This document shows, in pieces, positions 41,901-63,538 of a stretch of DNA of 64,000 nt; positions within the stretch are counted from its first letter, which is position 1, and each line of letters opens with the position of its first letter. The translations under genes were made by a program, and so were the position numbers. Source of the stretch: Escherichia coli. GTDB taxonomy: Bacteria > Pseudomonadota > Gammaproteobacteria > Enterobacterales > Enterobacteriaceae. The stretch is from NCBI RefSeq assembly GCF_048403405.1, contig NZ_CP183129.1; one strand, given 5' to 3'. Below the pieces are notes generated by a model that had not been told where the DNA came from, did no database searches, and saw only the letters and a program-made list of their open reading frames with translations.

Positions 41901-44095
41901 AATTTGATAAACCCGCAGGGGAAAACCCGATTGATCAGCTGAAGGTTGTCGGTCGTCCCCATGACCGTATCGACGGACCGCTGAAAACTACCGGCACGGC
42001 ACGCTACGCCTACGAATGGCATGAAGAAGCCCCCAACGCCGCCTATGGTTATATCGTCGGTTCCGCCATTGCCAAAGGATGCCTCACCGCCCTCGATACG
42101 GACGCCGCGCAAAAAGCGCCGGGCGTACTGGCTGTCATTACCGCCAGTAACGCCGGGGCACTCGGCAAAGGCGACAAAAACACCGCCAGGCTGTTAGGCG
42201 GCCCCACTATTGAGCACTATCATCAGGCCATTGCGCTGGTAGTGGCCGAGACCTTCGAACAGGCACGAGCGGCGGCCTCGCTGGTGCAGGCGCACTATCG
42301 CCGTAATAAAGGAGCTTACTCCCTGGCGGACGAGAAACAGGCCGTCAGTCAGCCGCCGGAAGACACGCCCGATAAAAATGTTGGTGACTTTGACGGGGCT
42401 TTCACCTCCGCTGCGGTGAAGATTGATGCTACCTACACGACCCCGGACCAGAGCCATATGGCGATGGAACCGCATGCCTCGATGGCCGTCTGGGATGGAA
42501 ATAAGCTTACCCTCTGGACCTCAAATCAGATGATTGACTGGTGCCGCACCGATCTGGCAAAAACGCTGAAAGTGCCCGTGGAGAATGTGCGTATTATCTC
42601 CCCGTATATCGGTGGAGGGTTTGGCGGCAAGCTGTTCCTGAGAAGCGATGCGCTGCTGGCGGCCCTCGCCGCCCGTGCGGTGAAACGTCCGGTTAAAGTG
42701 ATGCTCCCCCGCCCCACTATTCCCAATAACACCACGCACCGCCCCGCCACCCTTCAGCACCTGCGTATCGGTGCCGACCAGAGCGGGAAAATCACTGCTA
42801 TCTCACATGAAAGCTGGTCCGGAAACCTGCCCGGCGGCACGCCGGAAACGGCGGTACAGCAAAGCGAATTTCTTTACGCAGGGGCGAATCGTCATACAGG
42901 CCTGCGGCTCGCCACGCTTGATTTGCCGGAAGGGAACGCCATGCGTGCGCCCGGCGAAGCCCCCGGTCTGATGGCGCTCGAAATCGCGATCGACGAACTG
43001 GCGGAAAAAGCGGGCATCGATCCCGTCGAGTTTCGCATCCTGAATGACACTCAGGTTGACCCCGCCGACCCGACGCGCCGCTTCTCTCGCCGTCAGCTTA
43101 TTGAGTGCTTGCGCACCGGAGCGGATAAATTTGGCTGGAAGCAGCGAAACGCCACCCCCGGACAGGTACGCGACGGGGAGTGGCTAGTCGGCCACGGTGT
43201 TGCGGCGGGCTTTCGCAATAATCTGCTGGAAAAATCGGGTGCGCGGGTTCACCTGGAGCAAAACGGCACCGTTACCGTGGAAACGGACATGACCGATATT
43301 GGCACTGGCAGCTACACCATTCTGGCCCAGACGGCAGCGGAAATGCTTGGCGTACCGCTGGAGCAGGTTGCGGTTCACCTCGGCGATTCCAGTTTCCCGG
43401 TTTCTGCGGGTTCTGGTGGACAATGGGGCGCGAATACCTCCACCTCCGGCGTTTACGCCGCCTGTGTGAAACTTCGCGAAATGATTGCCTCGGCAGTCGG
43501 GTTTGATCCTGAGCAGTCGCAGTTTGCCGACGGCAAGATTACCAACGATACCCGAAGCGCCACGCTACATGAGGCCACCGCAGGCGGCAGACTGACAGCG
43601 GAAGAGAGCATTGAATTCGGAACAATGAGCAAGGAGTACCAGCAATCGACCTTTGCCGGGCATTTTGTGGAGGTCGGCGTGCATAGCGCGACGGGAGAAG
43701 TTCGGGTCCGGCGTATGCTCGCCGTGTGCGCAGCGGGGCGCATTCTGAATCCGAAAACTGCACGCAGCCAGGTCATTGGCGCAATGACTATGGGCATGGG
43801 CGCGGCACTGATGGAGGAGCTGGCGGTAGATGACCGTTTGGGCTACTTCGTTAATCACGATATGGCGGGGTATGAGGTGCCGGTCCATGCGGATATCCCA
43901 AAACAGGAGGTGATTTTCCTGGATGATACCGACCCCATCTCCTCCCCGATGAAGGCCAAAGGTGTCGGTGAGCTGGGCCTGTGCGGCGTGAGCGCGGCTA
44001 TCGCCAACGCGGTGTATAACGCCACCGGTATTCGGGTACGGGATTATCCCATCACTCTGGATAAGCTGCTCGATAAACTGCCGGATGTGGTTTAA
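41897..44095 (+). CDS. paoC: aldehyde oxidoreductase molybdopterin subunit PaoC
   Basis: 732-aa ORF, overlaps paoB stop; xanthine dehydrogenase family Mo-binding subunit. Confidence 0.9.
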
Positions 44096-44104
44096 GGAGG
44101 AACA

Positions 44105-45061
44105 ATGTCATACTCGCTTTTTGACAAAGACGAGCACTGGCATAAGCCAGAGCAGGCGTTTCTCACCGATGACCACCGGACCATTCTGCGCTTCGCCGTA
44201 GAGGCGCTAATGTCCGGTAAAGGAGCGGTGCTGGTGACGCTGGTGGAGATACGCGGCGGCGCGGCGCGCCCGCTCGGGGCGCAGATGGTGGTGCGCGAAG
44301 ATGGTCGTTACTGCGGTTTTGTCTCTGGCGGCTGCGTGGAGGCCGCTGCCGCTTTTGAAGCGCTGGAGATGATGGGCTCAGGCCGCGATCGCGAAATTCG
44401 CTATGGTGAAGGTTCGCCGTGGTTTGACATCGTTCTGCCCTGCGGCGGTGGGATCACGCTGACGCTCCATAAACTACGCTCGGCACAGCCTCTGCTCGCC
44501 GTGCTGAACCGCCTGGAACAGAGAAAACCGGCGGGTCTGCGCTACGATCCGCAAGCTCAATCGCTGGTGTGCCTGCCCACGCAAACCCGGACGGGCTGGA
44601 ATCTCAATGGCTTTGAGGTGGGGTTCAGACCATGCGTCAGTCTGATGATTTACGGACGTTCTCTTGAGGCGCAGGCAACCGCGAGTCTTGCAGCAGCCAC
44701 AGGCTATGACAGCCATATCTTCGATCTTTTTCCGGCCTCAGCCAGCGCTCAGATCGATACCGATACGGCGGTCATTTTGCTGTGCCATGATCTCAACCGG
44801 GAGCTGCCAGTGTTGCAGGCCGCGCGAGAGGCAAAACCCTTTTATCTCGGCGCATTGGGCAGCTATCGAACCCACACTTTACGTCTGCAAAAGCTCCACG
44901 AGCTGGGATGGTCCAGGGAGGAGACAGCGCAAATCCGGGCACCCGTCGGGATATTCCCCAAAGCCCGGGATGCGCATACTCTGGCACTCTCCGTGCTGGC
45001 AGAAGTCGCCTCTGTACGTCTCCATCAGGAGGAGGATTCATGCCTGCCCCCGTCGTCCTGA
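44105..45061 (+). CDS. paoD: molybdenum cofactor insertion chaperone PaoD (XdhC-like)
   Basis: 318-aa ORF directly after paoC. Confidence 0.8.
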   Translation: MSYSLFDKDEHWHKPEQAFLTDDHRTILRFAVEALMSGKGAVLVTLVEIRGGAARPLGAQMVVREDGRYCGFVSGGCVEAAAAFEALEMMGSGRDREIRYGEGSPWFDIVLPCGGGITLTLHKLRSAQPLLAVLNRLEQRKPAGLRYDPQAQSLVCLPTQTRTGWNLNGFEVGFRPCVSLMIYGRSLEAQATASLAAATGYDSHIFDLFPASASAQIDTDTAVILLCHDLNRELPVLQAAREAKPFYLGALGSYRTHTLRLQKLHELGWSREETAQIRAPVGIFPKARDAHTLALSVLAEVASVRLHQEEDSCLPPSS

Positions 45062-45240
45062 TCCTTGCGGCCGGGCGTGGAGAGCGCTTTCTCGCCTCCG
45101 GGGGAAATACCCATAAATTAAGAGAAAAATCTGCAGTAGCCGTTTTAGAAAATCACCTAAATCGTTTAAAAGAGCACCCAACCCATAGTGGGCGCTCATC
45201 GCCTTGTGTAACTTATTCAGCAACGCGCGCCCTCGCCGGA

Positions 45241-46434
45241 CTAAAGCGCACCGGCCTTCTGGCGTGCGGTAACAAAGGTCAGTACGCCAGCGCAAAGGAG
45301 CAGCACGCTACTCATAGCAAACGTGCTCTGCCAGCCAAGGCGGTCAAATACGATGCCTCCTGCTGTTGATCCAAGGGCGATGGAGAGCTGAATCACCGCG
45401 ACCATGAGCCCGCCTCCGGCTTCGGCGTTGTCAGGCAACGTACGCGCAATCCATGTCCACCATCCGGTTGGCGCGGCGGTGGCCAGCATGCCCCAGAGTC
45501 CTAACAGCAGCGAGACCGTCCAGACGTGATGCCCGGTCAGCATCAGACCGATAGCAATGACGGCCATCAGTCCGGGTATGGCCATCAGCGTGGGGTAGAA
45601 TTTTCTGTTGAGAAATGCCGAAACAACCAGCGTGCCAATAAAACCGGCCACGCCGATAATCAGCAAAATCAACGACAAGCCTAAGGAATTAACCCGTGTC
45701 ACCGACTCCAGAAACGGGCGCACATAGGTGAATAGTGCAAACTGCCCCATGAAAAACAGGCAGCAGGCTATCATGCCGACCACAACCATGCGGCGGCTAA
45801 ATAAGCGGAATACCGCGCCACATGAAGTGTGGCTTTTATTCGCATCCATGCTTGGCAGGCTGATGCACTGCCAGATAAAGGCGACAACCGCGATGGGCAC
45901 CAGGCACAAGAAAGCGCCTCGCCATCCGACCGTAGCCCCCAGATAGCTTCCCAGCGGTGCGGCCACGACCGTCGCCAGCGCATTACCGGCGTTGAAAATT
46001 GCCAGCGCACGCGTGACCTGATGCTGCGGCACCAGACGAATCGCCGTTGCCGCTGACATCGACCAGAATCCGCCAATAGCCACACCAATCATCGCACGAC
46101 CGACCATATACATCAGATAACTGGAAGCCAGCGCAATAATAAGCCCCGATACGGCCATCAGAACCGTCATCCCCAGCAGCAGGAACTTACGATTCATCTT
46201 TCCAGCTAGCGTTGAAAGCGTCAGGCTGGTCAGAACCGCCAGCGCGCCGGAGATAGCAATCCCCTGCCCTGCCAGCCCCTCCGTCACGCCTAAATCGCGG
46301 GTAATCGGCGTGAGCAGGCTGACGGGCATAAATTCAGAAGCAATCAGCACAAACACGCACAGGGTCATGGCAAAAATACCGCCCCAGTATGCGCGCTGAT
46401 GATGAGGTGATAGTGTTTGGCTTAGTGTCGACAT
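45241..46434 (-). CDS. MFS transporter (12 predicted TM segments)
   Basis: 397-aa ORF, hydrophobic throughout; weak RBS, so start uncertain. Confidence 0.7.
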   Translation of the reverse strand: MSTLSQTLSPHHQRAYWGGIFAMTLCVFVLIASEFMPVSLLTPITRDLGVTEGLAGQGIAISGALAVLTSLTLSTLAGKMNRKFLLLGMTVLMAVSGLIIALASSYLMYMVGRAMIGVAIGGFWSMSAATAIRLVPQHQVTRALAIFNAGNALATVVAAPLGSYLGATVGWRGAFLCLVPIAVVAFIWQCISLPSMDANKSHTSCGAVFRLFSRRMVVVGMIACCLFFMGQFALFTYVRPFLESVTRVNSLGLSLILLIIGVAGFIGTLVVSAFLNRKFYPTLMAIPGLMAVIAIGLMLTGHHVWTVSLLLGLWGMLATAAPTGWWTWIARTLPDNAEAGGGLMVAVIQLSIALGSTAGGIVFDRLGWQSTFAMSSVLLLCAGVLTFVTARQKAGAL

Positions 46435-46509
46435 AGTGAAATTTCACAAAGATCAGGATAAAAGCCACCAGCCTATGGCCGGTGGCTTTGCATCAATTCA
46501 GGAGAGGTT

Positions 46510-47646
46510 TTATTTCAGTTTGGTCTGGAAAAATTGTTCGAACTTCGCGAAAGGTATTTTTCCGGCCACGTTATCGTACAGGTCCACGTGATTTGCCCCT
46601 GGTACCACCACCAACTCTTTGTCTTTACTGCCAACCGCCTTGTAAGCATCTTCAGCAAAATAGCGTGAATGTGCTTTCTCACCGGTCACAATCAGCGTCG
46701 GAATGGTGATTTCACTGGCGTAGCTCAACAGCGGCATATTCATAAATGACAGCGGCATCGTTGCCGTCCACGCCCCGGTAGAGTTAACGGAACGTTCGTG
46801 GAAGCCGCGCGGCATGCGATAGTAGTCAAAGAACTCTTTCAGTACCGGATGAGGATTTGCCGGCAGCGTTTCTGGCAGAATGCGCTCGCCCGCACTGACC
46901 TTGCCGTTGCTGTCGACATTAATATCATGACCACCGTGAGCGAACGTTCCGCTCTGCGCATCCTTCCAGCGCTGTTCATTCAGATATTGCAGAACGGCAC
47001 GACGGTCGGCGGTAGAATAACGGTCTTTGCCATCCCCCACACCATGACCCATCGCCCGGCTCATGTCATACATCACGCTGGTAGCTACCGCTTTAACGCG
47101 GGTATCCATCGCCACGTCGTTCAGCGCCATGCCGCCCCAGCCACAAATACCGAGCAGCCCGATACGGTTGCGATCTACCTCTTTTTGCAGCCCTAAGAAA
47201 TCCACCGCCGCGCTGAAATCTTCAGTGTTGATATCCGGTGAGGCGACGTTTCGCGGATAGCCGCCGCTTTCCCCGGTGTAAGAAGGATCGAACGCCAGGG
47301 TAACAAACCCTCGTTCCGCCAGCGTCTGCGCATACAAGCCGCTGGATTGCTCTTTCACCGCGCCAAATGGCCCACTGACCGCAATCGCCGCCAGCTTGCG
47401 ATCGCCACGGTCTTTAGGCAGGTAAAGATCGCCCACTAAGGTGATGCCATATCGGTTCGGGAACGAGACTTTACGGTGATCGACTTTCTGGCTCTCGGCG
47501 AACGTTTTATCCCATTTATCTGTCATGGACACAGGGGCATTAGGATTGGTTGAATCAGCATAACTCATTGTCGTGACTCCACTTAATGATGCGAAAAGCA
47601 GCATGGTCGGCATCGCGGTTTTTAGCGTGCGGGTGAAGGCTTTCAT
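46510..47646 (-). CDS. secreted alpha/beta-fold hydrolase with Cys nucleophile, paralog of ORF 26903..27823
   Basis: ORF 46510..47667(TTG); ATG 47646 with GGGGA RBS; signal peptide ending SYA; motifs RIGLLGICGWGG and NHVDLYD. Confidence 0.7.
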   Translation of the reverse strand: MKAFTRTLKTAMPTMLLFASLSGVTTMSYADSTNPNAPVSMTDKWDKTFAESQKVDHRKVSFPNRYGITLVGDLYLPKDRGDRKLAAIAVSGPFGAVKEQSSGLYAQTLAERGFVTLAFDPSYTGESGGYPRNVASPDINTEDFSAAVDFLGLQKEVDRNRIGLLGICGWGGMALNDVAMDTRVKAVATSVMYDMSRAMGHGVGDGKDRYSTADRRAVLQYLNEQRWKDAQSGTFAHGGHDINVDSNGKVSAGERILPETLPANPHPVLKEFFDYYRMPRGFHERSVNSTGAWTATMPLSFMNMPLLSYASEITIPTLIVTGEKAHSRYFAEDAYKAVGSKDKELVVVPGANHVDLYDNVAGKIPFAKFEQFFQTKLK

Positions 47647-47832
47647 AAAAATCCCCATAAAAAACAACAGAGAGATACAGGTTTCCGACGGACAACGCTG
47701 CGGTGCTTTACTTTGATGGGGTCATTATAGTGAGCAGAATTAGTGCTGATTAGGGGGCGATTAATGCTAAGATTAATACCATATTGTTATAAATTAATGT
47801 GGAGATTGCCGGCATGAAGGGGGGATGTTTCA

Positions 47833-48717
47833 ATGGCGAAAAGGGAGAACTACAACGAGCTGTACCTGTTTATGCAGGTGGTGCGAGAAGGCAGCTTTAC
47901 CGCAGCGGCTCAGCGGCTGGGTCTTGCTCAGTCAGGAGTCAGCCGTTCTGTTCGCGAGCTTGAAGAAAGGCTGGGTGTCCAGCTGCTAGTGCGCACCACG
48001 CGTAAACTGTCGCTGACACAAGCAGGCGAGCAGCTCTACCAGAAGACGGCATCTGGATTTGAAATGTTAGATCTTGGGCTTGCCACACTGGCGCACTATC
48101 GAGAGACGCCCTCCGGCACGGTGCGTATCAATGCCAGCCAGCACGCGATTGATAAATGCCTGCTGCCAAAGCTGGCGGTATTTAAACAGCGATATCCTGA
48201 TATCCGGCTTGAACTGATAAATGAGAGCCGGTTCGTCGATATCATCGAGGAAAGATTCGATGCAGGTGTCCGCCTGGGGCCTGAAGTCGGCCAGGGTATG
48301 GTCGCGGTACGCATCACGCCCGATATGGAGATGGCAATTGTGGGGACTCCGGAACATTTTCGTCGCTATGGTTTTCCGCAAACCCCGGCGGATTTAAAGG
48401 CGCATCCCTGTATCGCCTATCAGTTTGCCGACGGCAGCGTATACCAGTGGGAACTCAATCAGGATGATAAAAAAATCACTCATCGCCCTGAAGGGCAATG
48501 GGCCTTATCCGACAGCTATATGGAAGCAGAAGCCGCCCGGCTGGGCCTCGGATTGGCCTATGTTCCTGTTGAACTGGTCGCGGATGATTTAGAACACGGT
48601 AAGCTTATCAGGGTGTTGCAGCGTTACAGCCTGCGAATGGAGGGATTGTTTCTCTATTACCCTCATCGCAACGTCTCCCCCGCCCTGCGGATGGTCATTG
48701 ATACATTGAAAATCTGA
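47833..48717 (+). CDS. LysR-family transcriptional regulator (possibly YagP-like)
   Basis: 294-aa ORF; LysR HTH (FTAAAQRLGLAQSGVSRSVRELEERL); divergent from hydrolase-MFS genes. Confidence 0.75.
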   Translation: MAKRENYNELYLFMQVVREGSFTAAAQRLGLAQSGVSRSVRELEERLGVQLLVRTTRKLSLTQAGEQLYQKTASGFEMLDLGLATLAHYRETPSGTVRINASQHAIDKCLLPKLAVFKQRYPDIRLELINESRFVDIIEERFDAGVRLGPEVGQGMVAVRITPDMEMAIVGTPEHFRRYGFPQTPADLKAHPCIAYQFADGSVYQWELNQDDKKITHRPEGQWALSDSYMEAEAARLGLGLAYVPVELVADDLEHGKLIRVLQRYSLRMEGLFLYYPHRNVSPALRMVIDTLKI

Positions 48718-48789
48718 ACGTTAACAACGACCGACTCTTTACTGTGCAATATTGTGTCAGGTAGTCCCTCTGCGTTCAATTCCAGGGTT

Positions 48790-49210
48790 TGTACTGACCC
48801 CAAAAAGTTGGACAGTTAAACACGAGGCATATAGGTCTGATTCCGATATTCAATTGGAGTCAGACCTTTTAATTTCAGGCTAATTCTTCTGCTGTTGTAG
48901 TATTCAATATATTCCGTAACAGCATCCTTCAGTTCGCTTATATTACTGAACTCATCAAGATAAAAACACTCCGACTTTAAGGTTCCAAAGAAACACTCCA
49001 CCACAGCATTATCCAGACAATTGCCTTTTCTGGACATGCTTTGTTTAATACCATGTTCTTTAAGGATATTTTGATATCTTCTCATACGATACTGCCATCC
49101 CTGGTCAGAGTGCAGAACAGGATGCTCGTGAGGATTAAGCTTTTTGAATGCCTGATCGAGCATATTCTCAACCATGTTCATCACTGGTCTTTCCGAAAGG
49201 CTGTAAGAAA
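48790..49210 (-). mobile_element. IS3-family (IS150-like) fragment: terminal repeat plus C-terminal part of orfB
   Basis: End TGTACTGACCCC at 48790; minus-strand ORF 48816..49283 encodes the DDE integrase C-terminus (HSDQGWQY...[11 protein letters not shown]); truncated at IS26 boundary 49210/49211. Confidence 0.65.
49203..49210. repeat. 8-bp IS26 target-site duplication copy (GTAAGAAA)
   Basis: Abuts IS26 copy 1; its reverse complement TTTCTTAC is at 50736-50743 abutting copy 2. Confidence 0.8.
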
Positions 49211-50030
49211 GGCACTGTTGCAAATAGTCGGTGGTGATAAACTTATCATCCCCTTTTGCTGATGGAGCTGCACATGAACCCATTCAAAGGCCGGCATTTT
49301 CAGCGTGACATCATTCTGTGGGCCGTACGCTGGTACTGCAAATACGGCATCAGTTACCGTGAGCTGCAGGAGATGCTGGCTGAACGCGGAGTGAATGTCG
49401 ATCACTCCACGATTTACCGCTGGGTTCAGCGTTATGCGCCTGAAATGGAAAAACGGCTGCGCTGGTACTGGCGTAACCCTTCCGATCTTTGCCCGTGGCA
49501 CATGGATGAAACCTACGTGAAGGTCAATGGCCGCTGGGCGTATCTGTACCGGGCCGTCGACAGCCGGGGCCGCACTGTCGATTTTTATCTCTCCTCCCGT
49601 CGTAACAGCAAAGCTGCATACCGGTTTCTGGGTAAAATCCTCAACAACGTGAAGAAGTGGCAGATCCCACGATTCATCAACACGGATAAAGCGCCCGCCT
49701 ATGGTCGCGCGCTTGCTCTGCTCAAACGCGAAGGCCGGTGCCCGTCTGACGTTGAACACCGACAGATTAAGTACCGGAACAACGTGATTGAATGCGATCA
49801 TGGCAAACTGAAACGGATAATCAACGCCACGCTGGGATTTAAATCCATGAAGACGGCTTACGCCACCATCAAAGGTATTGAGGTGATGCGTGCACTACGC
49901 AAAGGCCAGGCCTCAGCATTTTATTATGGTGATCCCCTGGGCGAAATGCGCCTGGTAAGCAGAGTTTTTGAAATGTAAGGCCTTTGAATAAGACAAAAGG
50001 CTGCCTCATCGCTAACTTTGCAACAGTGCC
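49211..50030 (+). mobile_element. IS26 (IS6 family), copy 1, 820 bp
   Basis: 14-bp terminal inverted repeats GGCACTGTTGCAAA at 49211 and 50017-50030; encodes Tnp26. Confidence 0.92.
49274..49978 (+). CDS. tnpA: IS26 transposase Tnp26
   Basis: 234-aa product [35 protein letters not shown]...; track ORF starts at upstream TTG 49256. Confidence 0.92.
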   Translation: MNPFKGRHFQRDIILWAVRWYCKYGISYRELQEMLAERGVNVDHSTIYRWVQRYAPEMEKRLRWYWRNPSDLCPWHMDETYVKVNGRWAYLYRAVDSRGRTVDFYLSSRRNSKAAYRFLGKILNNVKKWQIPRFINTDKAPAYGRALALLKREGRCPSDVEHRQIKYRNNVIECDHGKLKRIINATLGFKSMKTAYATIKGIEVMRALRKGQASAFYYGDPLGEMRLVSRVFEM

Positions 50031-50743
50031 CTTGCTGGTAGTGGTTCTGTAGCCAGGTGGCTGAAGGTCTATGAAGAGCGCGGAGAAGCTGGTTTACGCG
50101 CGCTCAAGATTGGCACCAAAAGAAACATTGCAATATCAGTTGATCCAGAAAAAGCGGCATCAGCATTGGAGCTGTCAAAAGACCGACGCATTGAGGATCT
50201 TGAAAGGCAAGTTCGATTTCTTGAAACGCGGCTTATGTATCTAAAAAAGCTGAAAGCCTTAGCTCATCCCACGAAAAAGTAAAAGTACTCAACGAGCTAA
50301 GGCAGTTTTATCCTCTTGATGAGCTTCTCAGGGCTGCGGAGATACCGCGCAGTACGTTTTATTACCATCTAAAGGCTCTCAGCAAGCCTGACAAGTATGC
50401 GGACGTTAAAAAGCGTATTGGTGAGATTTATCACGAGAATAGAGGCCGATACGGATACCGTAGGGTAACGCTGTCTCTTCATCGAGAAGGGAAACAGATT
50501 AACCATAAAGCTGTTCAGCGCCTGATGGGAACCCTCTCACTTAAAGCAGCGATTAAGGTCAAGCGATACCGCTCTTACAGAGGAGAGGTAGGGCAAACCG
50601 CCCCTAATGTTCTCCAAAGAGATTTCAAGGCTACGCGGCCAAACGAGAAGTGGGTTACCGATGTTACTGAATTTGCAGTCAATGGGCGCAAGCTGTATTT
50701 GTCTCCAGTAATAGATCTCTTCAACAACGAAGTTATTTCTTAC
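50031..50743 (+). mobile_element. IS3-family (IS150-like) fragment: C-terminal part of orfA and N-terminal part of orfB, inverted relative to 48790..49210
   Basis: orfA end with stop at 50279-50281; orfB N-terminus to 50743 (...KWVTDVTEF...[17 protein letters not shown]); frame continues into the minus-strand fragment across the shared 8-bp repeat. Confidence 0.65.
50736..50743. repeat. 8-bp IS26 target-site duplication copy (TTTCTTAC)
   Basis: Reverse complement of 49203-49210, abutting IS26 copy 2. Confidence 0.8.
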
Positions 50744-51563
50744 GGCACTGTTGCAAAGTTAGCGATGAGGCAGCCTTTTGTCTTATTCAAAGGCCTTACA
50801 TTTCAAAAACTCTGCTTACCAGGCGCATTTCGCCCAGGGGATCACCATAATAAAATGCTGAGGCCTGGCCTTTGCGTAGTGCACGCATCACCTCAATACC
50901 TTTGATGGTGGCGTAAGCCGTCTTCATGGATTTAAATCCCAGCGTGGCGTTGATTATCCGTTTCAGTTTGCCATGATCGCATTCAATCACGTTGTTCCGG
51001 TACTTAATCTGTCGGTGTTCAACGTCAGACGGGCACCGGCCTTCGCGTTTGAGCAGAGCAAGCGCGCGACCATAGGCGGGCGCTTTATCCGTGTTGATGA
51101 ATCGTGGGATCTGCCACTTCTTCACGTTGTTGAGGATTTTACCCAGAAACCGGTATGCAGCTTTGCTGTTACGACGGGAGGAGAGATAAAAATCGACAGT
51201 GCGGCCCCGGCTGTCGACGGCCCGGTACAGATACGCCCAGCGGCCATTGACCTTCACGTAGGTTTCATCCATGTGCCACGGGCAAAGATCGGAAGGGTTA
51301 CGCCAGTACCAGCGCAGCCGTTTTTCCATTTCAGGCGCATAACGCTGAACCCAGCGGTAAATCGTGGAGTGATCGACATTCACTCCGCGTTCAGCCAGCA
51401 TCTCCTGCAGCTCACGGTAACTGATGCCGTATTTGCAGTACCAGCGTACGGCCCACAGAATGATGTCACGCTGAAAATGCCGGCCTTTGAATGGGTTCAT
51501 GTGCAGCTCCATCAGCAAAAGGGGATGATAAGTTTATCACCACCGACTATTTGCAACAGTGCC
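50744..51563 (-). mobile_element. IS26, copy 2, inverted relative to copy 1
   Basis: 820 bp with the same 14-bp terminal repeats; encoded transposase identical at protein level to copy 1. Confidence 0.92.
50796..51500 (-). CDS. tnpA: IS26 transposase Tnp26
   Basis: Same 240-aa track translation as 49256..49978. Confidence 0.92.
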
Positions 51564-51803
51564 GATGATTTCAGATTTCATGACTTGAGACACACCTGGG
51601 CAAGTTGGCTGGTTCAAGCCGGTGTCCCGTTGTCAGTGTTACAGGAAATGGGAGGCTGGGAGTCTATCGAAATGGTTCGTCGATATGCTCACCTCGCACC
51701 TAATCACCTTACCGAACACGCACGGCAAATAGACTCGATCCTGAACCCATCGGTCCCAAATTTGTCCCAGTCAAAAAATAAGGAAGGTACTAATGATGTG
51801 TAA
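51564..51803 (+). pseudogene. 3' remnant of a tyrosine-recombinase (phage-type integrase) gene truncated by IS26
   Basis: About 80 C-terminal codons containing HDLRHTWAS and RRYAHL catalytic-region motifs; begins at the IS26 boundary, ends 15 bp from tRNA-Thr. Confidence 0.65.
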
Positions 51804-51817
51804 CTTATTGATTTAAA

Positions 51818-51893
51818 TGGTGCCGATAATAGGAGTCGAACCTACGACCTTCGCATTACGAATGCGCTGCTCTACCAACTGAGCTATATCGGC
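51818..51893 (-). tRNA. thrW: tRNA-Thr (anticodon CGU)
   Basis: Reverse complement reads GCCGATATAGCTCAGTTGGTAGAGCAGCGCATTCGTAATGCGAAGGTCGTAGGTTCGACTCCTATTATCGGCACCA; adjacent to proA as for thrW. Confidence 0.9.
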
Positions 51894-52007
51894 CCTGAAA
51901 GGACATGTTCACGAACGTGAATCACGGTGGACAAGGTTAAAACTAACCGGGCGATGCGTCAATGGCCTTGTGAATCAAATGGCTACTTTTGCATCACCCG
52001 GTTTTAT

Positions 52008-53261
52008 TTACGCACGAATGGTGTAATCACCAATGCCGATCCACTTGTAAGTGGTCAGTGCTTCCAGCCCCATTGGGCCACGCGCGTGGAGTTTTTGTGT
52101 GCTTACCGCCACTTCCGCACCCAGACCAAACTGGCCGCCGTCGGTAAAACGCGTAGAGGCGTTAACGTAAACAGCGGACGAATCCACTTCGTTAACAAAA
52201 CGCTGGGCGTTGCGCATATCGCGGGTCAGGATCGCATCGGAGTGTTGTGTGCCGTGTTCACGAATATGGGCGATGGCATCGTCAAGATCGCTGACGATTT
52301 TGACGTTCAAATCTAATGACAGAAACTCATCGTCATACTCTTCGGCTTTAACAGCAACCACCTTCGCAGGGCCTGCCTGCAACTGCGCCAGTGCAGCTGC
52401 ATCTGCGTGTAATGTCACGCCGCTTTCCGCCATTTGTTTGCTTAATGCGGGCAGGAAGCTATCGGCGATGTTTTTATTCACCAGCAACGTTTCAACCGTA
52501 TTACATGTGCTCGGTCGCTGAGTTTTCGCGTTGACGATCACTTTTAATGCTTCAGCGATCTCTACACTTTCATCAACGTAAATATGGCATACGCCTATAC
52601 CACCTGTGATCACCGGGATCGTTGACTGTTCGCGGCACAGTTTATGCAGGCCAGCGCCACCACGCGGGATCAGCATGTCGATGTATTTATCCATACGCAG
52701 CATTTCACTGACCAGCGCACGGTCAGGATTATCAATCGCCTGCACGGCACCCGCCGGTAAGCCGCAGGATTTCAGGGCGTCCTGAATCACCGCCACCGTT
52801 GCAGCGTTAGTGCGGCAGGTTTCTTTACCGCCACGCAGGACCACCGCGTTACCCGTTTTCAGGCACAGCGAAGCGACATCAACCGTCACGTTCGGCCGCG
52901 CTTCATAAATCACGCCAATCACGCCCAGCGGTACGCGACGACGCTCAAGACGCAGGCCGCTGTCCAGTACGCCGCCATCGATTACCTGCCCCACCGGATC
53001 GGCAAGGTTACACACCTGGCGCACATCGTCAGCAATGCCTTTCAGCCGTGCGGGCGTCAGTGCCAGACGGTCAAGCATCGCTTCGCTAAGGCCATTGGCA
53101 CGCGCGTCAGCAACATCCTGGGCGTTAGCGTTGAGGATGATTTCGCTTTGTGCTTCCAGTTCATCGGCGATTTTTTCCAGCACACGATTTTTTTCGCGGC
53201 TGGAGAGTTGCGCTAATTTATACGAGGCTTGCTTTGCGGCAATGCCCATTTGTTCCAGCAT
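52008..53261 (-). CDS. proA: gamma-glutamyl phosphate reductase ProA
   Basis: 417-aa [31 protein letters not shown]... Confidence 0.95.
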
Positions 53262-53272
53262 CGGCCAGCTCC

Positions 53273-54376
53273 TTAACGGGTAATCATGTCATCACGGTGA
53301 ACGGCAACCGGGCCATATTCATATCCCAGTATTGCATCAATTTCTTGCGAGTGGTGTCCGGCAATACGGCGTAATGCATCGCTGTTGTAACGACTGACGC
53401 CGTGGGCGATATCGCGACCTTCGAGGTTGCAAATGCGGATGACTTCACCACGCGAGAAATTGCCAGTCACGCTTTTAATACCTTTCGGCAACAGGGAGCT
53501 GCCGCGTTCAAGAATGGCGGCGGTTGCCCCTTCATCTACCGTGATTTCACCCGCCGGCGGCGCACCGAAAATCCAGCGTTTACGGTTTTCAAGCGGAGTC
53601 GCCTGGGCATGGAACAGCGTACCCACGGAAATGCCTTCCATCACATCACCAATAACGCCCGGCTTGCTGCCCGCGGCAATAATGGTGTCGATACCCGCAC
53701 GGCAAGCCACGTCCGCGGCCTGCAATTTGGTACTCATGCCGCCAGTTCCGAGGCCTGAAACACTGTCACCGGCAATCGCGCGCAGTGCGTCATCAATGCC
53801 GTAAACATCTTTAATCAGTTCTGCCTGCGGATTGCTGCGCGGGTCAGCGGTGTACAAACCTTTTTGATCGGTCAGCAGCAACAGTTTATCGGCACCCGCC
53901 AGAATCGCCGCCAGCGCAGAAAGGTTATCGTTATCGCCGACCTTAATCTCTGCAGTAGCGACAGCATCGTTCTCATTGATTACCGGAACGATATTGTTAT
54001 CGAGCAACGCTCGCAGGGTGTCGCGGGCGTTCAGGAAGCGTTCACGGTCTTCCATATCAGCACGGGTCAGCAGCATTTGCCCGACGTGAATGCCATAAAT
54101 CGAAAACAGCTGTTCCCACAGTTGAATCAGTCGACTCTGCCCTACCGCCGCCAGCAGTTGTTTCGAGGCGATAGTCGCTGGCAGTTCCGGGTAACCCAGG
54201 TGCTCACGTCCGGCGGCGATCGCGCCCGACGTCACAATAACAATCCGATGCCCGGCGGCATGTAACTGCGCGCACTGGCGAACAAGTTCAACGATATGGG
54301 CACGGTTCAGACGGCGCGATCCGCCTGTTAGCACACTGGTGCCGAGTTTTACCACCAGCGTCTGGCTGTCACTCAT
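53273..54376 (-). CDS. proB: glutamate 5-kinase ProB
   Basis: ORF 53273..54463; ATG 54376 ([16 protein letters not shown]...) gives 367 aa. Confidence 0.95.
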
Positions 54377-54564
54377 GATTCTCTGCCATTCAATTTTAGG
54401 AAAAATGATATCAAACGAACGTTTTAGCAGGACTGTCGTCGGTTGCCAACCATCTGCGAGCAAAGCATGGTGTTTTGTTGCGCGGGATCAGCAAGCGTAG
54501 CGGCAGTTGTTTACGCTTTTATTACAGATTTAATAAATTACCACATTTTAAGAATATTATTAAT

Positions 54565-54590
54565 CTGTAATATATCTTTAACAATCTCAG
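54565..54590 (+). promoter_or_regulatory. Pho box (PhoB site) in the phoE promoter
   Basis: CTGTAATATATCTTTAACAATCTCAG about 75 bp upstream of the phoE start; resembles tandem CTGTCATA-type PhoB half-sites. Confidence 0.5.
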
Positions 54591-54663
54591 GTTAAAAACT
54601 TTCCTGTTTTCAACGGGACTCTCCCGCTGAATATTCGCGCGTTAATTAAAATCAGGAATGAAA

Positions 54664-55719
54664 ATGAAAAAGAGCACTCTGGCATTAGTGGTGATGGGCA
54701 TTGTGGCATCTGCATCCGTACAGGCCGCAGAAATATATAACAAAGACGGTAATAAACTGGATGTCTATGGCAAAGTTAAAGCCATGCATTATATGAGTGA
54801 TAACGACAGTAAAGATGGCGACCAGAGTTATATCCGTTTTGGTTTTAAAGGCGAAACACAAATTAACGATCAACTGACGGGTTATGGTCGTTGGGAAGCA
54901 GAGTTTGCCGGTAATAAAGCGGAGAGTGATACTGCACAGCAAAAAACACGTCTCGCTTTTGCCGGGTTGAAATATAAAGATTTGGGTTCTTTCGATTATG
55001 GTCGTAACCTGGGCGCGCTGTATGACGTGGAAGCCTGGACCGATATGTTCCCGGAATTTGGTGGCGACTCCTCCGCACAGACCGACAACTTTATGACCAA
55101 ACGTGCCAGCGGTCTGGCTACTTACCGTAACACTGACTTTTTCGGCGTTATCGATGGTCTGAACTTAACCCTGCAATATCAAGGGAAAAACGAAAACCGC
55201 GACGTTAAAAAGCAAAACGGCGATGGCTTCGGTACGTCATTGACATATGACTTTGGTGGCAGCGATTTCGCCATCAGTGGGGCCTATACCAACTCCGATC
55301 GCACTAACGAGCAGAACCTGCAAAGCCGTGGCACAGGCAAGCGTGCAGAAGCATGGGCAACAGGTCTGAAATACGATGCCAATAATATTTATCTGGCAAC
55401 TTTCTATTCTGAAACACGCAAAATGACGCCAATCTCTGGCGGCTTTGCCAATAAGACACAGAACTTTGAAGCGGTCGCCCAATACCAGTTTGACTTTGGT
55501 CTGCGTCCATCGCTGGGTTATGTCTTATCGAAAGGGAAAGATATTGAAGGCATCGGTGATGAAGATCTGGTCAATTATATCGACGTCGGTGCTACATATT
55601 ATTTCAACAAAAATATGTCAGCGTTTGTTGATTATAAAATCAACCAACTGGATAGCGATAATAAGCTGAACATCAATAATGATGATATTGTCGCGGTTGG
55701 CATGACCTATCAGTTTTAA
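54664..55719 (+). CDS. phoE: phosphate-starvation outer-membrane porin PhoE
   Basis: ORF 54658..55719; ATG 54664 with AGGA RBS; signal peptide [21 protein letters not shown]; C-terminal GMTYQF. Confidence 0.95.
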
Positions 55720-55757
55720 TGGATATTGCCGGATGTGATGCATCCGGCACATTTCAC

Positions 55758-56216
<459 letters not shown>

Positions 56217-57461
56217 TTAACACAATCGTTTTTCAATCCAGTCTGTGATTTCCTGAAGGCCTTTGTCAAAATTCCGATACACCGGGTTAAATGGGATCTC
56301 TAATAATTTACCGTCAGCAGATGATGAGGTGATTAAGCGTGAGTCCTCTTCCGGGCTGAACGGATCGTTCTTCCAGTAGCCTGATAACATTGGCGTTGGG
56401 CAACGACGTCCCAGCAATCCTTGCACTTTTAATGAATAGCGATTCAACTCCACGCGTAACGCTTCGTCGGAAGCATCATGCATACCCAAACGACTCGCCA
56501 GAACGTCAAGATACATTTCCGGCACCTGTTGCTGGCACTTAAAATCACTCAACAGGGTATGAACTACCGGACCAAGACAGGCAACCGCTTTCAGACGCGG
56601 CGATTCAAGGTATGCCAGACGTACGGCAACGTTAGCGCCGAAACGGAAACCAAAGGCCGCGACGCGAGTGTGATCTACCCACGGTACGTTAGGCAGCGCC
56701 TTTAAGACGTGCTGATGCAACAGGCTGGAGTCCTGGGTGAGCTTCCATTTTGAAGAAAAGCCCACCGACGGCATATCAATAGTCAGCATCGCAATGCCGC
56801 GCGGCGCAAAATAACGTTCATACAGGCTGTAATAGTCCGTCTGCATCGCATCCAGACCACCACACATTAATACTGTCGGGAACGGGCCATCACCTTTCGG
56901 CATATGCAAAAAGCCGGTGATGGGCGCACCGCCGGGTACGGTAAACTCCATCTGCCGCATCGTGCCCGGCAGACGCTGAGCGGCCTCTTCATAGGCGCGG
57001 TTTGACAAAGCCTGCGCTTGCTCGGCCAGGTCATCTCCTTTCAGATGAGGATAGGCGGCAATGTTGTACAACGTAGCCGCATGCAGCCAGTGACGACCAC
57101 TGAGTTGCGGATCTTCTTCCGCACAGGCTTTTTGTTGCCACACCATCGCCTGGGTGGCCCACTCATAAATCCAGTTGCCACCACGGTAGCCAATCACCGT
57201 ATCGTATAAATCATCGTCGGTACGTTCGGCATCGCTCATCACAATACGCGCCTGGACGTCGAGGATTTCACGTGGGTCAATGCCGCGCCAGATCCACATC
57301 AGACGGTTAATCATGCGATACCAGTGAGGGATGGTTTTACCATCAAGGGCCGACTGCACAGGCGGTTGTGCGCCGTGATTAAAGCGGCGGACTAGCGTCG
57401 AGGTTTCAGGATGTTTAAAGCGGGGTTTGAACAGGGTTTCGCTCAGGTTTGCCTGTGTCAT
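56217..57461 (-). CDS. frsA: esterase FrsA (fermentation/respiration switch protein)
   Basis: 414-aa alpha/beta-hydrolase ORF between crl and gpt. Confidence 0.92.
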
Positions 57462-57552
57462 GGATGCAGCCTCCAGAATACTTACTGGAAACTATTGTAA
57501 CCCGCCTGAAGTTAAAAAGAACAACGCCCGGCAGTGCCAGGCGTTGAAAAGA

Positions 57553-58011
57553 TTAGCGACCGGAGATTGGCGGGACGAATACGACGCCCATATCCCACGG
57601 TTGTTCGATCCAGGTATCTTGCGGGATATCAACAACATAATCATCAACCAGCGGACGACCAGCCGGTTTTGCGAAGATGGTGACAAAGTGCGCTTTTGGA
57701 TACATTTCGCGGATTGCCACTGCAGTACCACCGGTATCCACCAGGTCATCAATAACAATGAAGCCTTCGCCATCGCCTTCTGCGCGTTTCAGCACTTTAA
57801 GCTCGCGCTGGTTGTCGTGATCGTAGCTGGAAATACAAACGGTATCGACATGACGAATACCCAGTTCACGCGCCAGTAACGCACTCGGTACCAGACCGCC
57901 ACGGCTTACGGCAATAATGCCTTTCCATTGTTCAGAAGGCATCAGTCGGCTTGCGAGTTTACGTGCATGGATCTGCAACATGTCCCAGGTGACGATGTAT
58001 TTTTCGCTCAT
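57553..58011 (-). CDS. gpt: xanthine-guanine phosphoribosyltransferase Gpt
   Basis: 152-aa [26 protein letters not shown]... with PRPP-binding [11 protein letters not shown]. Confidence 0.95.
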
Positions 58012-58271
58012 GTGAAGTGTCCCAGCCTGTTTATCTACGGCTTAAAAAGTGTTCGAGGGGAAAATAGGTTGCGCGAGATTATAGAGATCTGGCGCACTAA
58101 AAACCAGTATTTCACATGAGTCCGCGTCTTTTTACGCACTGCCTCTCCCTGACGCGGGATAAAGTGGTATTCTCAAACATATCTCGCAAGCCTGTCTTGT
58201 GTTGACAACATTTTCTGCTAACCCTGTGACCTGCAATACTGTTTTGCGGGTGATCGACAAGGAGACTTAAC

Positions 58272-59729
58272 GTGTCTGAACTGTCTCAATTATCTCCACA
58301 GCCGCTGTGGGATATTTTTGCCAAAATCTGTTCTATTCCTCACCCGTCCTATCATGAAGAGCAACTCGCTGAATACATTGTTGGTTGGGCAAAAGAGAAA
58401 GGTTTCCATGTCGAACGCGATCAGGTAGGTAATATCCTGATTCGTAAACCTGCTACCGCAGGTATGGAAAATCGTAAACCGGTCGTCTTGCAGGCCCACC
58501 TCGATATGGTGCCGCAGAAAAATAACGACACCGTGCATGACTTCACGAAAGATCCTATCCAGCCTTATATTGATGGCGAATGGGTTAAAGCGCGCGGCAC
58601 CACGCTGGGTGCGGATAACGGTATTGGTATGGCCTCTGCACTGGCGGTTCTGGCTGACGAAAACGTGGTTCACGGCCCGCTGGAAGTGCTGCTGACCATG
58701 ACCGAAGAAGCCGGTATGGATGGTGCTTTTGGCTTACAGAGCAACTGGTTGCAGGCTGATATTCTGATTAACACCGACTCCGAAGAAGAAGGTGAAATCT
58801 ACATGGGTTGCGCGGGGGGTATCGACTTTACCTCCAACCTGCATTTAGATCGTGAAGCGGTTCCAGCTGGCTTTGAAACCTTCAAGTTAACCTTAAAAGG
58901 CCTGAAAGGCGGTCACTCCGGCGGTGAAATCCACGTTGGCCTGGGTAATGCCAACAAACTGCTGGTGCGCTTCCTGGCGGGTCATGCAGAAGAACTGGAC
59001 CTGCGCCTTATCGATTTCAACGGCGGCACACTGCGTAACGCCATCCCGCGTGAAGCCTTTGCGACCATTGCTGTCGCAGCTGATAAAGTCGACGCACTGA
59101 AATCTCTGGTGAATACCTATCAGGAGATCCTGAAAAACGAGCTGGCAGAGAAAGAGAAAAATCTGGCATTGCTGCTGGACTCTGTTGCGAACGATAAAGC
59201 TGCCCTGATTGCGAATTCTCGCGATACCTTTATTCGTCTGCTGAACGCCACCCCGAACGGTGTGATCCGCAACTCCGACGTGGCAAAAGGTGTGGTCGAA
59301 ACCTCCCTGAACGTCGGTGTGGTGACCATGACTGACAATAACGTAGAAATTCACTGCCTGATCCGTTCTCTGATCGACAGCGGTAAAGACTACGTGGTAA
59401 GCATGCTGGATTCGCTGGGTAAACTGGCTGGCGCGAAAACCGAAGCGAAAGGCGCATATCCTGGCTGGCAGCCGGACGCTAATTCTCCGGTGATGCATCT
59501 GGTACGTGAAACTTATCAGCGTCTGTTCAACAAGACGCCGAACATCCAGATTATCCACGCGGGCCTGGAATGTGGTCTGTTCAAAAAACCGTATCCGGAA
59601 ATGGACATGGTTTCTATCGGGCCAACAATCACCGGTCCACACTCTCCGGATGAGCAAGTTCACATCGAAAGCGTAGGTCATTACTGGACACTGCTGACTG
59701 AACTGCTGAAAGAAATTCCGGCGAAGTAA
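58272..59729 (+). CDS. pepD: cytosol nonspecific dipeptidase PepD
   Basis: 485-aa ORF with GTG start; M20-family metallopeptidase. Confidence 0.95.
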   Translation: MSELSQLSPQPLWDIFAKICSIPHPSYHEEQLAEYIVGWAKEKGFHVERDQVGNILIRKPATAGMENRKPVVLQAHLDMVPQKNNDTVHDFTKDPIQPYIDGEWVKARGTTLGADNGIGMASALAVLADENVVHGPLEVLLTMTEEAGMDGAFGLQSNWLQADILINTDSEEEGEIYMGCAGGIDFTSNLHLDREAVPAGFETFKLTLKGLKGGHSGGEIHVGLGNANKLLVRFLAGHAEELDLRLIDFNGGTLRNAIPREAFATIAVAADKVDALKSLVNTYQEILKNELAEKEKNLALLLDSVANDKAALIANSRDTFIRLLNATPNGVIRNSDVAKGVVETSLNVGVVTMTDNNVEIHCLIRSLIDSGKDYVVSMLDSLGKLAGAKTEAKGAYPGWQPDANSPVMHLVRETYQRLFNKTPNIQIIHAGLECGLFKKPYPEMDMVSIGPTITGPHSPDEQVHIESVGHYWTLLTELLKEIPAK

Positions 59730-59739
59730 TTACAATAAT

Positions 59740-59761
59740 GTCCACGCCTGCGGGCGTGGAC
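59740..59761 (+). terminator. hairpin immediately after pepD stop
   Basis: GTCCACGCC-tgcg-GGCGTGGAC perfect 9-bp stem; weak downstream T-tract (TACTGTTTG). Confidence 0.35.
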
Positions 59762-59776
59762 TACTGTTTGAAGCCA

Positions 59777-60019
59777 ATGGCTATCTATATCGAAATAACA
59801 AAACATTATGAAACTCATGAAAAGGTCGCATATTTATATAGCTGCGACCATATTTCATGGGGAGAATTTCTGATCACCAAAGAAGGTTTTGCGCTGGAAT
59901 CCGTGAAAGAACTTAAGGGTGAAAAGCAGAAATTTTATATGTTCAGAGCCTGGGGCAAAGTCAGGAGAGCATACTTAACCACGGGAGAATTCCCCCAGGA
60001 AACATGTTACGCCGCTTAA
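59777..60019 (+). CDS. hypothetical 80-aa protein
   Basis: ORF 59738..60019; first ATG lies inside the pepD terminator hairpin, so ATG 59777 (MAIYIEITKHYE...) is used; no clear RBS. Confidence 0.25.
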   Translation: MAIYIEITKHYETHEKVAYLYSCDHISWGEFLITKEGFALESVKELKGEKQKFYMFRAWGKVRRAYLTTGEFPQETCYAA

Positions 60020-60035
60020 AGTCAGAGTTATTTTT

Positions 60036-60545
60036 TCATGCATTTACCATTTTGGCATTACGCCTGCGCCACATGGCAATGGCGGCAGCCACTAATGCCA
60101 GTTCCAGTAAAAACGACCAGTGTAATAAAAAATTGAGCCACCACGGATGATGTACCGCCGTAATATGAAAGAGTGCAAAGGGTTGGTTAACGAAAGGCAT
60201 CAACCACCAGATATCACCGACCAGCGTATCGAGTAATAAATGCACGATACCATTCAGGCAAAACACCACGCCCAACCACGCCGGAAGTTTATTCTTCGCA
60301 ATTGCGGCCCAGACTAATGTCGCCGCCAGCAGAGCAAACCATAATAATGGCCAATGAGACGGGTAAAGATGATGATGTCGTTGCCCGTTATCAACCAGAT
60401 AGCACCAAAAAAGATCAAAATCGGGCGCAACGGACCCAACTAAGCCAATAACCATCGCCCAGCGCGCATGACGAGCAATCAGTGGCAAGCGTTTCATTAA
60501 AGTACAAGTTATTAAATAACCAGCCGGAAGATGACCGATAAACAT
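60036..60545 (-). CDS. polytopic membrane protein, possibly DUF457/YdjM-like metal-dependent hydrolase
   Basis: ORF 60036..60599; ATG 60545 (MFIGHLPAGYL...) with AAGGA RBS; His-rich hydrophobic sequence; 7 bp downstream of prfH. Confidence 0.5.
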   Translation of the reverse strand: MFIGHLPAGYLITCTLMKRLPLIARHARWAMVIGLVGSVAPDFDLFWCYLVDNGQRHHHLYPSHWPLLWFALLAATLVWAAIAKNKLPAWLGVVFCLNGIVHLLLDTLVGDIWWLMPFVNQPFALFHITAVHHPWWLNFLLHWSFLLELALVAAAIAMWRRRNAKMVNA

Positions 60546-60606
60546 GACTATTCCTTTCGTTTTTCCCGCCGCTTTCACATAGAAAACGGCGGGAGACATT
60601 CCTCAA

Positions 60607-61221
60607 TTACACAGCGACAAAAGCCATCCCTGTAAACGTTCGTCGCGGGTTGCCACGTTCAATCTGGTGATGGAACATTCGCCGCTGCGATTTCAGCGCC
60701 GCGCTATTTTTCTGTTGCTGCTGCTCCAGCTTCCAGGCAATCAGCAATCGCGCCAGCCGTTTGTTAGCATGCTGGCTGCGCTCTGACTGAACCTTCACGC
60801 TAATCCCGGATGCCAAATGCGTGGCGCGTACCGCCGAGTCGGTTTTATTGACATGTTGACCGCCCGGCCCCGACGAACGCAGCGTCTCATACCGGATCGC
60901 ATCGGATTGCTCCTGCTCATCAGCGGTAAAACGCCCAATGCCCAGAAACCAGTTTTTGCGCCCATGATGAGGCCGATACGGACTCGGACAAATCCACTGA
61001 ATAGTGCCGCACCAACTTTCGCTTAATGCCCATGCATTATCGCCATCCAGAGAAACCAGCGCTGAACGCAGCGTGTCAGAGTAGCGGCCCGTTTCTGTTT
61101 CCAGCACCGTTACCGCGACGTCTTGTCGGGTAGCTTCTTTAATCAGCCTGTCCAGTGCCTTTTTCACTGCGAGACAACATTCTTCCGGCCCCTGCGCTGA
61201 GGAGAGTTGTAGCAAGATCAT
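60607..61221 (-). CDS. prfH: peptide chain release factor homolog PrfH (GGQ motif)
   Basis: ORF 60607..61305; start at ATG 61221 ([14 protein letters not shown]...) in ATGA overlap with rtcB stop; [16 protein letters not shown] motif. Confidence 0.8.
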
Positions 61222-62369
61222 CCTTTTTTCCCTCCACTGTTTTTGAGCGTTAGCACCGGACGCAGTCGCGCGACAGGAATAATTAAACCGGCTTGCACCA
61301 GACATTGCACCACACTTTCAGCCGATTTATAGGCTTGTGGCGCTTCTTCGAAGATGAGTTGTTTATCGCGACAAATCACCCGGCTGCCAAGTTCAGTACG
61401 CGAGAGTTGCGTCGCCGTGTAATTCGCTGCCAGACGCCCTTTACACTCGGTGCGCCCCCATTTACGCCCTGCCCCATGCGCCAGCGAGTGGAGCGTTTTT
61501 TCGTTCGCAACAGGTTTAACCAGCCAGGAGTAATCACCGCGTGAACCGGGAATAATCACCAGACCGTTGTCATCCGGCGTGGCACCTTTACGATGCAACC
61601 AGCCCTGTTGATCGCCGATTTGGCACGCGCTAACAAAGTTATGCGCCACATCCAGAACCGGACTTCCGGTGGCCTTAACTTGTTGCATTATGCGCAAAGC
61701 GATCATCTGGCGATTAATACGCGCAAACGCCAGCGCATCGTCATGTTCCGCAATATACCGTAGCGCGTCGTCACTGCCTTCAGGCAAACCATGATGCGAA
61801 AACGAGGCAATATGCCGCTGTAAAATAGACTGCCCCAACCCCCTCGAGCCGCTATGAACCAGCAGTTGCAGATGCTGCGCATCCAGACCTGCCAGTGCAA
61901 ACAGTTCAGCGTCGATGATTTCATCAACTTGTTGCAGTTCTGCAAAGTGGTTTCCGCCACCGATAGAGCCAAGCGAGCTGCGCCACGAATGCTGTGCAAA
62001 TGCTGACGGCAGGTTTTCCTCCAGCCAGCTTTCTTCAGCAACGTCATCCAAAGCTGATAATCGCTTTTCAAACTTATCGGCGTTGTATTTACGAGCGAGA
62101 ATATCTGTTTGCCATAGCGCCATGCCGCAGCCGATATCATTGCCGACCAGTGCCGGGTAAAAACGGCCTGCGGAGAAGAACGCTGCGCCAATCGGGTAGC
62201 CGCGTCCGGGATGTAAATCTGGCATCCCTACTACGCGCTGCATGTTGGGTAAATTTGCCGTGGTGTGTAATTGTTGGATCGCTAAACTCTCGATCCACAG
62301 GTCATCAGATGCGATGGTAAATACCGCATCGGATAAGGGACGAATATATTTGCCCATGTACCATTCCAT
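61218..62369 (-). CDS. rtcB: RtcB-family RNA ligase paired with prfH (RtcB2-type)
   Basis: 383-aa ORF with RtcB motifs ([27 protein letters not shown]); start may be ATG 62369 or 62357. Confidence 0.8.
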
Positions 62370-63128: not shown

Positions 63129-63137
63129 AATATAAAT

Positions 63138-63536: not shown

Positions 63537-63538
63537 CC

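Follow-up and report, generated by a model that had tools for sequence, protein, structure and literature searches.

How did a threonine tRNA gene in this Escherichia coli chromosome come to have beside it only the tail of an integrase gene, cut off by an insertion sequence, where a close relative carries a complete prophage? The analysed stretch of contig NZ_CP183129.1 (64,000 nucleotides, hereafter the window) contains the tRNA gene thrW, the site at which an initial annotation had proposed a decayed island. We propose that the locus is the IS26-truncated scar of a thrW prophage that would have been lost through IS26, with an IS26 inversion in the remnant of an IS150 element, a reading to which we assign a probability of about 0.88.

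An integrase tail beside an intact thrW

The stretch between the nearest insertion sequence and the far end of the tRNA gene contains the following features:

51564–51803, + strand: integrase pseudogene stub, codons 309–387 of an SfII/SfV-type tyrosine integrase and the stop codon (Pfam PF00589; identity to SfII Int)
51804–51817, unstranded: phage-derived spacer of 14 nt from the int stop codon to the att core (98.8% match to SfII; 100% match to MS 69-1)
51818–51863, unstranded: att core of 46 bp, equal to the 3′ 46 nt of thrW and common to phage attP and bacterial attB
51818–51893, − strand: thrW, tRNA-Thr(CGT), intact (ARAGORN; 76 of 76 nt as in K-12 thrW)

Translation of 51564–51800 gives 79 residues (containing VRRYAHL and ending in TNDV), followed by a TAA stop at 51801–51803, which bears out the initial description of an integrase 3′ end of about 80 codons with HDLRHT and RRY motifs, both of which are present. 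A Pfam match to PF00589 (Phage_integrase; E=9.9e-17) covers only profile positions 126–171 of 172, the C-terminal catalytic box, and the peptide is identical at 79 of 79 positions to residues 309–387 of the 387-aa integrase of Shigella phage SfII. It displays the elements of box II (HDLRH, GGW and RRYAH, corresponding to H-x-x-R, His/Trp and the nucleophilic Tyr), which align via a full-length homologue with the H-x-x-R, His and Tyr of the HP1 integrase (1AIH); in the alignment to the same structure, the box I motif of the full-length homologue (LATGLRRS) falls upstream of the IS26 breakpoint. What is kept, codons 309–387 of 387, includes neither the box I Arg nor the N-terminal core- and arm-binding domains. 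The stub starts at the base directly after the terminal inverted repeat of an IS26 copy (50744–51563), with the outer end of that element at the 51563/51564 boundary; the 5′ part of about 308 codons is replaced by IS26, as had been stated at the outset. The initial annotation had made its reading depend on this frame being a true relative of the tyrosine recombinases and on the locus holding no complete prophage; the comparison with integrases aligns the stub to that family, and there is no complete prophage in the window.

To judge from its sequence, the stub is a pseudogene fragment of the PF00589 family and not a functional member. As the tail of a catalytic domain it is unable to recombine or to be excised, because the N-terminal arm- and core-binding domains, the box I Arg, its own start codon and a partner att site are all missing. 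The right annotation is an integrase pseudogene, N-terminally truncated by IS26, and not a gene. A mechanically called ORF of 276 aa (50973–51803, + strand) crosses the IS26 transposase gene in antisense and then enters the stub in frame; nothing marks this ORF as a gene, and automatic annotation could miscall it. We regard it as highly improbable that this ORF, or read-through from IS26, yields a protein with the C-terminal 79 integrase residues that hampers the integrases of incoming thrW-specific SfV/SfII-type phages, and nothing supports its expression. Were this true, the integrase fragment would, for instance by forming dead heteromers at the att core, be an accidental anti-lysogeny factor.

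The tRNA gene itself is the sole one found by ARAGORN in the 64-kb window, and proA, proB and phoE lie to its right. The close adjacency of the integrase stop codon to the tRNA, first put at 15 bp, stands with a minor amendment, the distance being 14 nt (51804–51817) and the earlier figure differing by no more than one. In SfII an identical 46-bp core adjoins int (L001 3255–3300), and the homology to the phage stops at 51863. The tRNA 3′ end is shown to have been rebuilt from the phage att core on integration, and therefore thrW is still intact. A direct repeat of the tRNA 3′ end, which the initial annotation had proposed to look for further left, was sought throughout the window: no second copy of the att core or tRNA 3′ end occurs in the 64 kb at up to 3 mismatches in 43 nt (chance expectation 0). 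The window holds a single core copy and not the direct-repeat pair of attL and attR that marks an integrated prophage or island.

Source of the stub among thrW-specific elements

Phages of the SfII/SfV type are reported to use thrW, downstream of proA, as their integration site and to have int at one extremity of the prophage (PMC3306764). The 254 bp between the IS26 boundary and the tRNA match SfII and Escherichia phage phi458 at 98.8% DNA identity and SfV, SfI and SfIV at 98.0%, the match always lying at the int 3′ end. The likeness to these five phages (98–98.8% in DNA) covers the stub together with the 14-nt spacer and the 46-bp core, and it extends to the position relative to thrW and proA and to the convergence of int on the tRNA 3′ end. 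Unlike the SfII/SfV phages, of which SfII has the gene order xis, int, att, gtrA, gtrB and gtrII, the window has neither xis nor gtr genes nor a partner att site accompanying the stub, and about 20% of the integrase gene is left. We interpret the scar as the non-functional int-proximal junction (int 3′ end, P-arm spacer and 46-bp core) of an SfV/SfII-type temperate phage.

The occupant of the same tRNA gene in K-12 offers another conceivable source. The statement in the initial annotation that K-12 carries CP4-6 here is correct: the MG1655 annotation places this cryptic prophage at 262898–297205, starting inside thrW, with intF distal beside the second core copy, so that the core is present twice, once per CP4-6 end. 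A K-12-type CP4-6 decayed in place would account for the shared tRNA gene and the identical 46-bp core; both occupants are also heavily IS-ridden and decayed. This origin is refuted by several differences. BLASTP finds no similarity of the stub to K-12 IntF (E=2.4), and CP4-6 is a 34.3-kb element whose unrelated 466-aa IntF is encoded at its far end beside a partial att copy, not next to thrW. BLASTN of window 45000–52100 against K-12 259000–302000 aligns nothing beyond the paoD end, the att core and thrW/proA, with no CP4-6 internal sequence shared in that interval, and the occupant in the related strain MS 69-1 (see below) is an SfV-like prophage rather than CP4-6. The two options that had been raised for the difference from K-12, IS-mediated loss or a different occupant, both hold: the stub is derived from an SfII/SfV-type Int and not IntF, and MS 69-1 retains a long insertion at this site.

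At least 80% of the 254-bp int end is carried by 1,288 of the 5,426 complete E. coli genomes, and partial matches, mostly annotated as short integrase pseudogenes, are found in about 1,300–1,340 further genomes of the same set. Because of these partial matches, we conclude that decayed integrase stubs of the SfII/SfV family beside thrW-type att copies are commonplace. Old, diverged stubs with internal stops are present at L005 8034–8297 (MS 69-1), L010 6015–6158 and L011 5994–6137, that of MS 69-1 lying 14 bp from the second att core copy. Like the stub in the window, the old stubs (MS 69-1 L005 8034–8237; AR_0104; Ecol_542) belong to the same family, are N-terminally truncated and sit just upstream of a copy of the att core; they differ in measuring 144–204 bp at 91–98% identity, with internal stops and no IS26 boundary, whereas the stub in the window is young, as its 100% identity to an intact gene indicates. 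These old stubs indicate that thrW has been repeatedly and tandemly occupied, and its occupants repeatedly decayed to stubs, across E. coli lineages.

The probable arrangement before the loss

The closest relative is E. coli MS 69-1, which differs from window 1–48788 by 3 mismatches and no gaps (99.994% identity), is 100% identical to 51564–52442 and about 99.94% identical over 51564–63829. Between the two break points of the window, MS 69-1 has 46,628 bp (L005 1495–48122); in its full arrangement the LysR gene is followed by a ykgR fragment, an AbiEii/AbiEi pair, a 1069-aa ORF, an ash-family gene, an older int pseudogene, a second att, a prophage of about 40 kb, int and thrW. The prophage displays, in order, GIY-YIG, pinE, tail fibre, baseplate, sheath, capsid, terminase and lysis genes, continuing with Q, replication, repressor and xis-like genes and a full-length int of 372 aa, and ends at thrW. 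It matches SfV at 95.4% identity across 64% of a 25-kb query, and its structural genes are SfV-like, yet no gtr gene is annotated beside its att copy. The 46-bp core is present twice in MS 69-1 (L005 8252–8297 and 48377–48422), and the DNA of the stub is 100% identical to the integrase end of this complete SfV-like prophage at thrW. In TUM1226 and OX030728, flanks 100% identical to those of the window are spaced about 46.6 kb apart, as in MS 69-1. The alignment across thrW that had been recommended in the initial annotation thus displays CP4-6 in K-12 and an SfV-like prophage in MS 69-1. We infer from this sister genome, rather than from the window's own lineage, that the region would have been arranged in this way before the loss. 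Its description as a decayed island is right in recognizing a decayed occupant at thrW; the occupant is better called a prophage, and an older island remnant disappeared along with it.

Absent from the window are the AbiEii/AbiEi type IV toxin-antitoxin (abortive infection) pair, located at L005 1857–3546 in MS 69-1, and the 1069-aa hypothetical protein. The loss of the prophage took this candidate phage-defence module (AbiEii/AbiEi) along.

Two further observations concern the flanking DNA. Besides the thrW region, window 1–63829 differs structurally from MS 69-1 in one respect only: a 704-bp IS200C downstream of pepD in MS 69-1 (L009 8299–9002), which the window lacks at about 59732–59738. 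To the left, a module of MFS transporter, alpha-beta hydrolase and LysR genes (about 45117–48788, from paoD to IS150) is absent from K-12, where only the yagP LysR fragment is found; because of this absence, and because at least 80% of window 44000–49210 is carried by 911 of 5,426 complete E. coli genomes, we conclude that the module is accessory DNA.

IS26 and IS150 architecture

The DNA to the left of the integrase stub is made up of two copies of IS26 and two pieces of one IS150:

48790–49210, − strand: IS150 right-end fragment (IS150 1443–1023; IRR and 3′ part of orfB), with rve/rve_2/rve_3 in ORF 48816–49283 and collinear with the IS150 of FDAARGOS_1289
49211–50030, + strand: IS26 copy 1, 820 bp (IRs 49211–49224 and 50017–50030; tnp26 ORF 49256–49978)
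50031–50743, + strand: inverted internal IS150 fragment (IS150 318–1030; 3′ orfA and 5′ orfB), 99.4% identical to L002 6216–5501, in reverse
50744–51563, − strand: IS26 copy 2, 820 bp (IRs 50744–50757 and 51550–51563; tnp26 ORF 50796–51518)

Each IS26 copy has the 820-bp length, the 14-bp terminal inverted repeats (GGCACTGTTGCAAA) and the single transposase ORF of the element, and RefSeq records label matching sequence as IS26 family. The four matches to the inverted repeat correspond to two elements, and there are no other IS26 copies in the window. The two are mutually inverted and identical at 820 of 820 positions, with identical transposase ORFs listed at 240 aa. The LysR gene ends at a stop at 48717, 72 bp from the IS150 end, and 48718–51563 consists of this 72-bp spacer, the IS150 fragments and the two IS26 copies only; the earlier statement that no cargo lies between the tRNA and the LysR/hydrolase/MFS module therefore holds.

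The flanks of the IS26 copies are informative. To the left of copy 1 is GTAAGAAA (49203–49210), the last 8 bp of the IS150 right-end fragment, and to the left of copy 2 is TTTCTTAC (50736–50743), the last 8 bp of the internal IS150 fragment and the reverse complement of GTAAGAAA. The right flanks are unrelated, namely CTTGCTGG after copy 1 and GATGATTT, which belongs to int, after copy 2. Joining 48790–49210 to the reverse complement of 50031–50735 restores 1,126 contiguous bp of IS150 (318–1443) with 3 mismatches to the FDAARGOS_1289 IS150, and the 8-bp target is single-copy in the intact IS150 of L002.

A complete IS150 in FDAARGOS_1289 shares the exact insertion site and the orientation of the IS150 end seen here (TSD GTC; window 48789–48790, L002 5088–5093, L005 1492–1497). 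The flanks in FDAARGOS_1289 are only 99.2% identical to those of the window, and MS 69-1, although near-identical, lacks an IS150 at this position, which makes inheritance from an FDAARGOS_1289-type arrangement unlikely and suggests two independent strikes at one site, placed between imperfect inverted repeats.

IS26-mediated inversion and proposed deletion

Transposition of IS26 in trans within one molecule is known to give a new, inverted IS copy, to flip the intervening DNA and to duplicate the target in inverted orientation, one target copy per IS (He et al. 2015, PMC4471558). The window has the inverted IS26 pair, the inverted 8-bp duplication with one copy per IS and a 705-bp segment that is flipped relative to the IS150 of L002. 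Because GTAAGAAA and TTTCTTAC form an inverted pair, one per IS26 copy, we take the duplication as a signature that shows intramolecular replicative transposition of IS26 with inversion. An inversion by homologous recombination between two independent IS26 insertions was considered and rejected, as it predicts two pairs of reverse-complementary flanks and one is found: the reverse complement of CTTGCTGG is CCAGCAAG, not GATGATTT. By the pattern of the target duplication, copy 2 would occupy the position of the ancestral IS26, and copy 1 would be the product of the inversion event.

Undoing the inversion would restore the order LysR, IS150 (1443 to 318), IS26, int from codon 309 onward and thrW. 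In this restored arrangement the flanks of the single IS26, CCAGCAAG on the IS150 side and GATGATTT on the int side, mismatch, which indicates an IS26-mediated deletion; the known outcome of IS26 action in cis is likewise a deletion that leaves a single IS copy with no TSD (He et al. 2015, PMC4471558). Compared with an MS 69-1 arrangement to which an intact IS150 is added, the window lacks 46,628 + 317 bp. We picture the following history. An SfV/SfII-type phage integrated in thrW of a recent ancestor, and an IS150 inserted 72 bp downstream of the LysR gene in the window's lineage. IS26 would then have taken out the DNA from IS150 position 317 to int codon 308, comprising 317 bp of IS150 and the 46,628 bp (about 46.9 kb), presumably by intramolecular replicative transposition in cis (adjacent deletion) with release of a non-replicating circle. 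Either before or after this deletion, IS26 would have attacked in trans the 8-bp target GTAAGAAA in the remaining IS150, giving a second IS26 in inverted orientation, flipping the 705 bp between the copies and doubling the target as an inverted pair. One base stands against the full scenario: at junction position 48789 the window reads T where both reference genomes read C, and neither the IS26 nor the IS150 steps account for this T.

Replicative transposition in cis is the likeliest route of the deletion, and we favor it with some reserve. The 46.9-kb loss could instead have come about by RecA-dependent recombination between two direct IS26 copies, inserted separately in IS150 and in int, which would also leave exactly one IS26 with the non-matching flanks CCAGCAAG and GATGATTT; the deletion product is identical to that of the cis route, and the sequence does not separate them. 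We hold the recombination route to be possible and rather unlikely, since it calls for two IS26 insertions and a recombination as opposed to a single step by the cis route, the inverted TSD shows that this IS26 has itself undergone intramolecular replicative transposition at this place and there is no further IS26 copy in the window, although none of these points is decisive.

By the cis route or by recombination, the loss through IS26 that we prefer presupposes that the junctions are real. Identical 820-bp repeats are classic sites of assembly collapse, and the prophage might in principle still be present between two direct IS26 copies that the assembler merged into one; in line with this, the exact IS26/int and IS26/IS150 junctions are absent from all 5,426 complete E. 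coli genomes and from the plasmids of PLSDB. Junctions unique to one genome are, on the other hand, normal for a recent private event, and the contig crosses two identical IS26 copies with a consistent inverted TSD and a perfectly reconstructable IS150, which a short-read collapse usually would not give. Collapse would moreover need unplaced prophage contigs, and we judge such an artefact very improbable.

A ready-made unit of IS26 and truncated IS150 delivered from a plasmid was also considered and rejected, as no record spans any junction: comparisons of 47700–52100, 51440–51960 and 49911–50350 with the 5,426 complete E. coli genomes and PLSDB returned no junction-spanning record, and the high-ranking multi-piece matches are chance neighbourhoods of IS26 with a complete IS150 or ISKpn8.

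Implications for strain history and the thrW site

The event that made the IS26/int and IS26/IS150 junctions is, on the strength of these sequence comparisons, recent and private to this strain, and the two junctions could act as a lineage marker. The scar is otherwise ordinary: it fits the known thrW-specific lambdoid integrases and the known cis and trans transposition of IS26, and calls for no new mechanism or family. As in the case described by He et al. (2015, PMC4471558), a resident IS was split into pieces (IS150 here, ISSwi1 there), and in the restored arrangement a single IS26 without a TSD would abut a large deletion. Unlike that case, the events took place in the chromosome next to a tRNA gene instead of in a resistance plasmid, involve no resistance gene and deleted a prophage. 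The locus is a clean chromosomal example, without resistance genes, of the textbook trans outcome of intramolecular IS26 transposition and probably of the cis outcome as well, and its importance beyond annotation and strain history is small.

For the biology of the strain, the difference from MS 69-1 amounts to the loss of an SfV-like prophage of about 40 kb and of the AbiE toxin-antitoxin/abortive-infection module. The att core in thrW is empty but intact and should be usable by incoming thrW-specific phages, which would leave the site open to re-lysogenisation.
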